A stretch of 64,000 bases of DNA, from the NCBI RefSeq assembly GCF_000026545.1, contig NC_011601.1. One strand, written 5' to 3'. Below the pieces are notes generated by a model that made no database searches, was not told the DNA's origin, and saw only the letters and a program-made list of their open reading frames with translations. Each line of letters opens with the position of its first letter. Position 1 is the stretch's first letter. The translations under genes and the position numbers were made by a program. Shown piece by piece: positions 44,493 to 44,569 of this stretch. Origin of the DNA: Escherichia coli O127:H6 str. E2348/69 (GTDB lineage Bacteria > Pseudomonadota > Gammaproteobacteria > Enterobacterales > Enterobacteriaceae).

Positions 44493-44569
44493 TGGTTGCG
44501 GGGGCCGGATTTGAACCGACGACCTTCGGGTTATGAGCCCGACGAGCTACCAGGCTGCTCCACCCCGCG
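44493..44569 (-). tRNA. metY: Initiator tRNA-fMet (CAU), 77 nt, with G at position 46
   Basis: Reverse complement reads CGCGGGGTGGAGCAGCCTGGTAGCTCGTCGGGCTCATAACCCGAAGGTCGTCGGTTCAAATCCGGCCCCCGCAACCA. Confidence 0.95.

Follow-up and report, generated by a model that had tools for sequence, protein, structure and literature searches.

The metY initiator tRNA gene of Escherichia coli O127:H6 strain E2348/69 carries the common G46 allele, and the A46 allele of K-12 is the rare one

In textbooks, the product of metY is the A46 variant of the Escherichia coli initiator tRNA, tRNA-fMet2. In K strains, tRNA-fMet1 carries m7G46 and tRNA-fMet2, encoded by metY, carries A46 (PMC3017606), a distinction between the initiator species that is also described in PMC8887418. 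The initiator pool is made up of approximately 75% tRNA-fMet1 and approximately 25% tRNA-fMet2 (PMC5389676; PMC8887418). For E. coli B, PMC3017606 relates, citing Mandal & RajBhandary 1992, that all four initiator genes encode tRNA-fMet1, and the polymorphism of metY between K-12 and B was, as cited in that same paper, published in 1992. The metY of strain MRE600 is likewise of the fMet1 type (PMC6511841). Here we describe metY in a stretch of E. coli DNA of 64,000 nucleotides, referred to below as the window, and compare it with these systems. The window is identical at all 64,000 bases (0 mismatches) to the reverse complement of positions 565054-629053 of the E2348/69 record NZ_CP059840.2.

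The gene lies on the minus strand at 44493..44569, where ARAGORN calls a tRNA-Met with the anticodon CAT at position 35 and the Rfam tRNA model RF00005 matches 44496-44569 with a score of 61.4 bits (E=7.9e-12). It is 77 nt in length with an encoded CCA end, is of the tRNA-fMet1 sequence type, and reads on the tRNA strand CGCGGGGTGGAGCAGCCTGGTAGCTCGTCGGGCTCATAACCCGAAGGTCGTCGGTTCAAATCCGGCCCCCGCAACCA. The predicted fold is a cloverleaf whose minimum-free-energy structure leaves C1 without a partner, and the C1 x A72 mismatch of the acceptor stem is present and flagged by cmscan as a non-canonical pair. The anticodon loop is CUCAUAA, containing the CAU anticodon, and the stem that carries it (UCGGG / CCCGA) ends at the bottom in three consecutive G:C pairs (G29-G31:C39-C41), which are described as a feature of initiator tRNAs (PMC3017606; PMC5389676). 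The A11:U24 pair is also present. Judged by its sequence, the gene at 44493-44569 shows all of the features that characterize bacterial initiator tRNAs, and from its 100% identity to tRNA-fMet1 we infer that methionine attached to the tRNA would be formylated and that the tRNA would bind directly to the P site. A chance pattern or a pseudo-tRNA at these coordinates was considered and rejected, as the sequence matches a known tRNA at 77/77 positions and its position is conserved. Given this exact match and the conserved site between argG and rimP, metY is a real gene.

The surroundings of the gene are those of metY in other E. coli. Open reading frames, Rfam matches and annotations place a single initiator tRNA gene between the divergent argG (44917..46260, plus strand) and rimP-nusA-infB, with the rimP leader next to it. 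The first protein-coding gene downstream is rimP (43834..44286), and its translated product shows 100% identity to the RimP proteins of strains including K-12 and B. It is accompanied on the minus strand by nusA (42319..43806), infB, which encodes IF2 (39622..42294), and rbfA and truB, which also lie downstream of metY; the coordinates of rimP, nusA and infB are given by both the open reading frame list and the E2348/69 annotation, and those of argG by the list and annotation as well. The arrangement agrees with the orthologous metY locus in the K-12 and E2348/69 annotations, and the tRNA at 44493-44569 is metY, the head of the metY-rimP-nusA-infB-rbfA-truB operon.

A promoter scan of the minus strand recovers two promoters upstream of the tRNA, P-1 of the metY operon at 44662..44691 (TTGACA, an 18-nt spacer and TATAAT, agreeing with the consensus at 12/12 positions) and P0 of metY at 44585..44614 (TTTGCA, 18 nt and TAGAAT). 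The core sequences of both are printed in PMC6511841, and each printed core has one spacer base that is unlike both the window and K-12 MG1655, at 44676 in P-1 and at 44607 in P0; strains C11 and A31 match the printed bases at these two sites. The same paper remarks on spacer differences between MRE600 and K-12 at exactly those two positions (PMC6511841), and the printed bases fit that difference. Directly 3' of metY, the region 44452..44493 on the minus strand is an exact match to the promoter P2 given in PMC6511841. The rimP leader follows at 44304..44404 on the same strand (Rfam RF01770, 102 bits, E=2.9e-17) and contains two terminator-like hairpins in a terminator scan, at 44348-44371 and 44311-44323; PMC6511841 describes two terminators, t1 and t2, ahead of rimP.

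The base that sets the two initiator species apart is found in the variable loop, which in the window is AGGTC (RNA AGGUC), with position 46 as its middle base. The variable-loop string CCCGAAGGTCGTCGG, quoted by the sequence-only reading of this DNA with no mention of strand, is present on the minus strand. Owing to an additional D-loop residue, 17a, conventional position 46 corresponds to base 47 of the gene, and it lies at 44523, where both alignments and a direct reading of the base give G on the tRNA strand (C on the plus strand). The A46 that tRNA-fMet2 of the K-12 metY type requires is absent. Against metY of K-12 MG1655 (b3171), which has A at this position, the mature gene shows this sole difference and is identical at 76/77 positions, while metZ, metW and metV of K-12 are identical to it at 77/77. 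Both the claim that this metY encodes the G46, fMet1-type tRNA in place of the K-12 A46 variant and the premise behind it, that K-12 metY differs from metZWV by A46 versus G46, are therefore correct; in the comparison with metZWV and metY of K-12 and with E. coli B, K-12 metY does not have G at this position. The fMet1-type metY of E. coli B is likewise confirmed, as the B-RalR gene is identical to that of the window, G46 included, and BL21(DE3) metY also has G46, reading ...CCCGAAGGTCGTCGG..., in agreement with the account of E. coli B for which PMC3017606 cites earlier work.

The mature tRNA thus has all 77 nt in common with tRNA-fMet1, the m7G46-bearing product of metZ, metW and metV, including G46 and the initiator hallmarks, and differs from those genes in its location, as the window copy precedes rimP-nusA-infB, whereas the metZWV cluster is situated between mltA and amiC. 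With K-12 metY it shares the flanking genes, the promoters P-1, P0 and P2 and the rimP leader; it has G46 in place of A46, and one more base differs, at 44578 in the 5' leader. The metY of E. coli B and BL21(DE3) encodes the same G46 mature tRNA at the same locus, but the window has T at 44578 and C at 44478 on the tRNA strand and B has the reverse. Read in the order 44578, position 46 and 44478, the alleles are T, G and C in the window (E2348/69), C, G and T in B and BL21(DE3), and C, A and C in K-12.

How these alleles are distributed was examined in a sample of 5,426 complete E. coli genomes, of which 5425 had a match and one had none. Queries of 63 nt, running from the anticodon stem into the 3' flank that is specific to metY, were made in a G46 and an A46 version. 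The G46 query is exact in 5046/5425 genomes (approximately 93%), the A46 query is exact in 365, and 14 genomes are exact to neither. Single polymorphisms were also followed with 55-nt queries in which the variable base is flanked by 27 nt in both directions, and these return the queried allele only, because megablast needs a 28-mer seed. The query centered on A46 gives exactly 365 genomes, with one chromosomal match in each. A longer query of 201 nt separated no alleles, as its identity bands are coarse and the flanking polymorphisms (columns 14, 43 and 143 of alignment A1) confound them. Across the E. coli genome searches, individual genomes have between 1 and 8 matches to the initiator tRNA (median 4), and four of these matches are located on plasmids. 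In at least two genomes, IR53017 and 2014C-3051, a partial match takes the place of a full metY locus.

Strains with G46 include O157:H7, Nissle 1917, CFT073, NCTC86, HS, ATCC 25922, UM146 and O55:H7. For the 365 genomes with A46, strain identities come from 184 entries among the matches listed, many of them repeats, and most of these listed matches bear the names of K-12 derivatives or laboratory strains such as MG1655, EMG2, C600, DH5alpha and DH10B. J53, MC4100, HB101, XL1-Blue and Keio strains are also found among the matches listed, in which the A46 chromosomes are 4.46-4.79 Mb in size. A few of the listed A46 matches bear labels of animal, food or clinical origin (e.g., USML2, SF10, EC06 and THB42-F4). 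These field-labelled genomes have K-12-like sizes and metY coordinates, and they are possibly transconjugants in J53 or C600.

The G46 allele had been proposed as a lineage marker that points to a non-K-12, possibly B-like, background. The first part of this holds and the second does not, since G46 is nearly universal and the window is E2348/69. It is true that E. coli B strains carry G46 at metY, both in their sequences and in PMC3017606, but so do the 5046/5425 genomes noted above, which are of kinds as different as O157:H7, Nissle/CFT073, HS and NCTC86. A relationship to E. coli B, BL21 or REL606 is also contradicted by the bases on either side of the tRNA. Position 44478 lies 14 nt 3' of the CCA end of metY, within the P2 region, and the B-type T at this position, found by 55-nt query in 310 genomes including BL21(DE3), C43(DE3) and HS, is missing from the window, whereas the T that the window has at 44578 is missing from B. 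Position 44478, unlike G46, is able to tell B-type strains from the window. Over the 3.2 kb around metY (3201 sites), the window has 53 differences from B and 52 from K-12, but K-12 and B differ from one another at only 9 of the same sites. Finally, when 25 kb around metY are used as a query, only E2348/69 and two O127:H6 records match at 100.0% identity, with the next best match at 99.6%, and E2348/69 is a phylogroup B2 strain that serves as the prototype of EPEC1 (PMC4464170). The exact identity of the window to this strain refutes a B-like background, to which we attach practically no probability.

The Nissle record CP007799.1 has 266 differences from the window and was disregarded in these comparisons, as its argG region is rearranged or truncated. 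At 3669313-3672513 of NZ_CP007799.1, a truncated argG adjoins an additional nusA end and an N-terminal fragment of infB, a structure that probably reflects either an error of assembly or a duplication at this site. Other Nissle assemblies contain the full 25-kb query in one piece at 99.5% identity.

Gene content elsewhere in the window, examined by comparing the E2348/69 annotation with that of MG1655, also separates this strain from K-12. The N-acetylgalactosamine PTS genes agaW-agaE-agaF-agaA/nagA are intact at approximately 10657-13892; in K-12, agaW and agaA are pseudogenes, and agaE and agaF are lacking. The prlF-yhaV toxin-antitoxin pair of K-12 is absent at the garD/agaR junction (approximately 7746-7796), and the yraHIJK fimbrial operon of K-12 is absent at the agaI/rsmI junction (approximately 19303-19351). 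As markers of a non-K-12 background, these differences in aga, prlF-yhaV and yraHIJK carry far more weight than G46. The identical E2348/69 record also has rnpB, the gene for RNase P RNA, annotated at approximately 1108-1484 on the minus strand.

Outside of E. coli, a 48-mer from the 3' part of the tRNA with A46 has no match in 100,044 species-representative genomes, and the same 48-mer with G46 matches at least 120 stretches in such genomes. Among the matches listed are 52 non-E. coli loci at which a G46 tRNA lies directly upstream of rimP on the same strand, and these metY-position loci come from Citrobacter, Enterobacter, Klebsiella, Pantoea, Vibrio, Aeromonas, Shewanella and Pseudomonas. 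The metY described here is almost certainly an ordinary E. coli gene with the ancestral, species-typical G46 allele. The A46 of tRNA-fMet2 would then be a derived single-base change that in this dataset is apparently confined to K-12 and its derivatives, and the simplest history would be one change of G to A on the K-12 branch. As G46 is ancestral and near-universal, its presence excludes K-12 only and does not favor B over any other background.

The opposite polarity would be obtained if an A46 metY had recently been converted by metZWV, which would make G46 at metY the derived state. Such a conversion is mechanistically possible, as metY and metZ/W/V are identical over 77 nt, and no sign of it would remain within the gene. 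However, A46 occurs, among the matches listed, only in genomes that look like K-12, and it is found in none of the 100,044 representatives; the orthologous loci upstream of rimP carry G46 all the way from Citrobacter to Pseudomonas. Gene conversion is also a less simple account than a single change of G to A on the K-12 branch, and we consider it exceedingly improbable. An ancestral G46 is retained as the preferred reading.

A further difference from both K-12 and B close to the gene is the polymorphism at 44578 on the minus strand (column 43 of alignment A1), where the window has the minor allele, T on the tRNA strand and A on the plus strand. K-12, B, O157:H7, Nissle and most other strains have C at this site. 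The position is 8 nt 5' of the mature end of metY and 7 nt after TAGAAT, the -10 hexamer of P0. With T in only 179/5425 genomes and a site (approximately +2 of P0) that is this close to both the promoter and the mature 5' end, it could be argued that this base is the functional distinction of the locus, altering either the start of metY transcription or its processing by RNase P in strains like E2348/69. However, P0 is reported to be quantitatively marginal at 37 C when compared with P-1 (PMC6511841), and a change of a single leader base is usually neutral. The carriers of T are also very varied, including E2348/69, LF82, NRG 857C, M8 and an O113:H21 strain, which suggests a neutral polymorphism or recombination. 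A functional role for this base therefore appears quite unlikely, and T at 44578 is probably neutral in effect.

The consequence of G46 for the strain lies in the initiator tRNAs that it would make. In E2348/69, metZ, metW and metV are identical to metY over 77 nt, so that the four initiator genes are alike and would all be expected to give rise to the same tRNA sequence, that of tRNA-fMet1. As position 46 is G and not A, a separate fMet2 species is not expected. The gene for the G46-N7 methyltransferase, trmB, is annotated as intact in E2348/69, and because it is intact, TrmB would be expected to methylate G46 of the metY tRNA to m7G46. From these genes we infer that E2348/69 makes only the tRNA-fMet1 type, with m7G46. 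Near the metZWV cluster of this strain, at 996278-1001507 of NZ_CP059840.2, approximately 5.5 kb of extra genes lie between amiC and metV and have no K-12 counterpart at that place. These extra genes are a PRD-domain regulator, a PTS EIIC pseudogene, a MalY/PatB family protein, a KpsF/GutQ isomerase and a phosphoglycerate dehydrogenase.

The metY described here is a known gene with a known allele, and what is added is the count, in which the K-12 allele is the rare one. The picture of two initiator species, tRNA-fMet1 with m7G46 and tRNA-fMet2 with A46, is very probably a private peculiarity of the K-12 lineage. If this is true, it would widen the 1992 observation on K-12 and B to the whole species, though it involves no new mechanism. 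With the tRNA-fMet2 of K-12 as the exception, G46 at metY therefore marks neither B nor any other lineage, and for strain identification the exact match to E2348/69 and the differences in gene content are far more informative. In practice, the distinction is relevant only to the separation of fMet1 and fMet2 on native gels and to constructs derived from metY. In E2348/69, as in almost every strain other than K-12, fMet1 and fMet2 would be expected to be indistinguishable.
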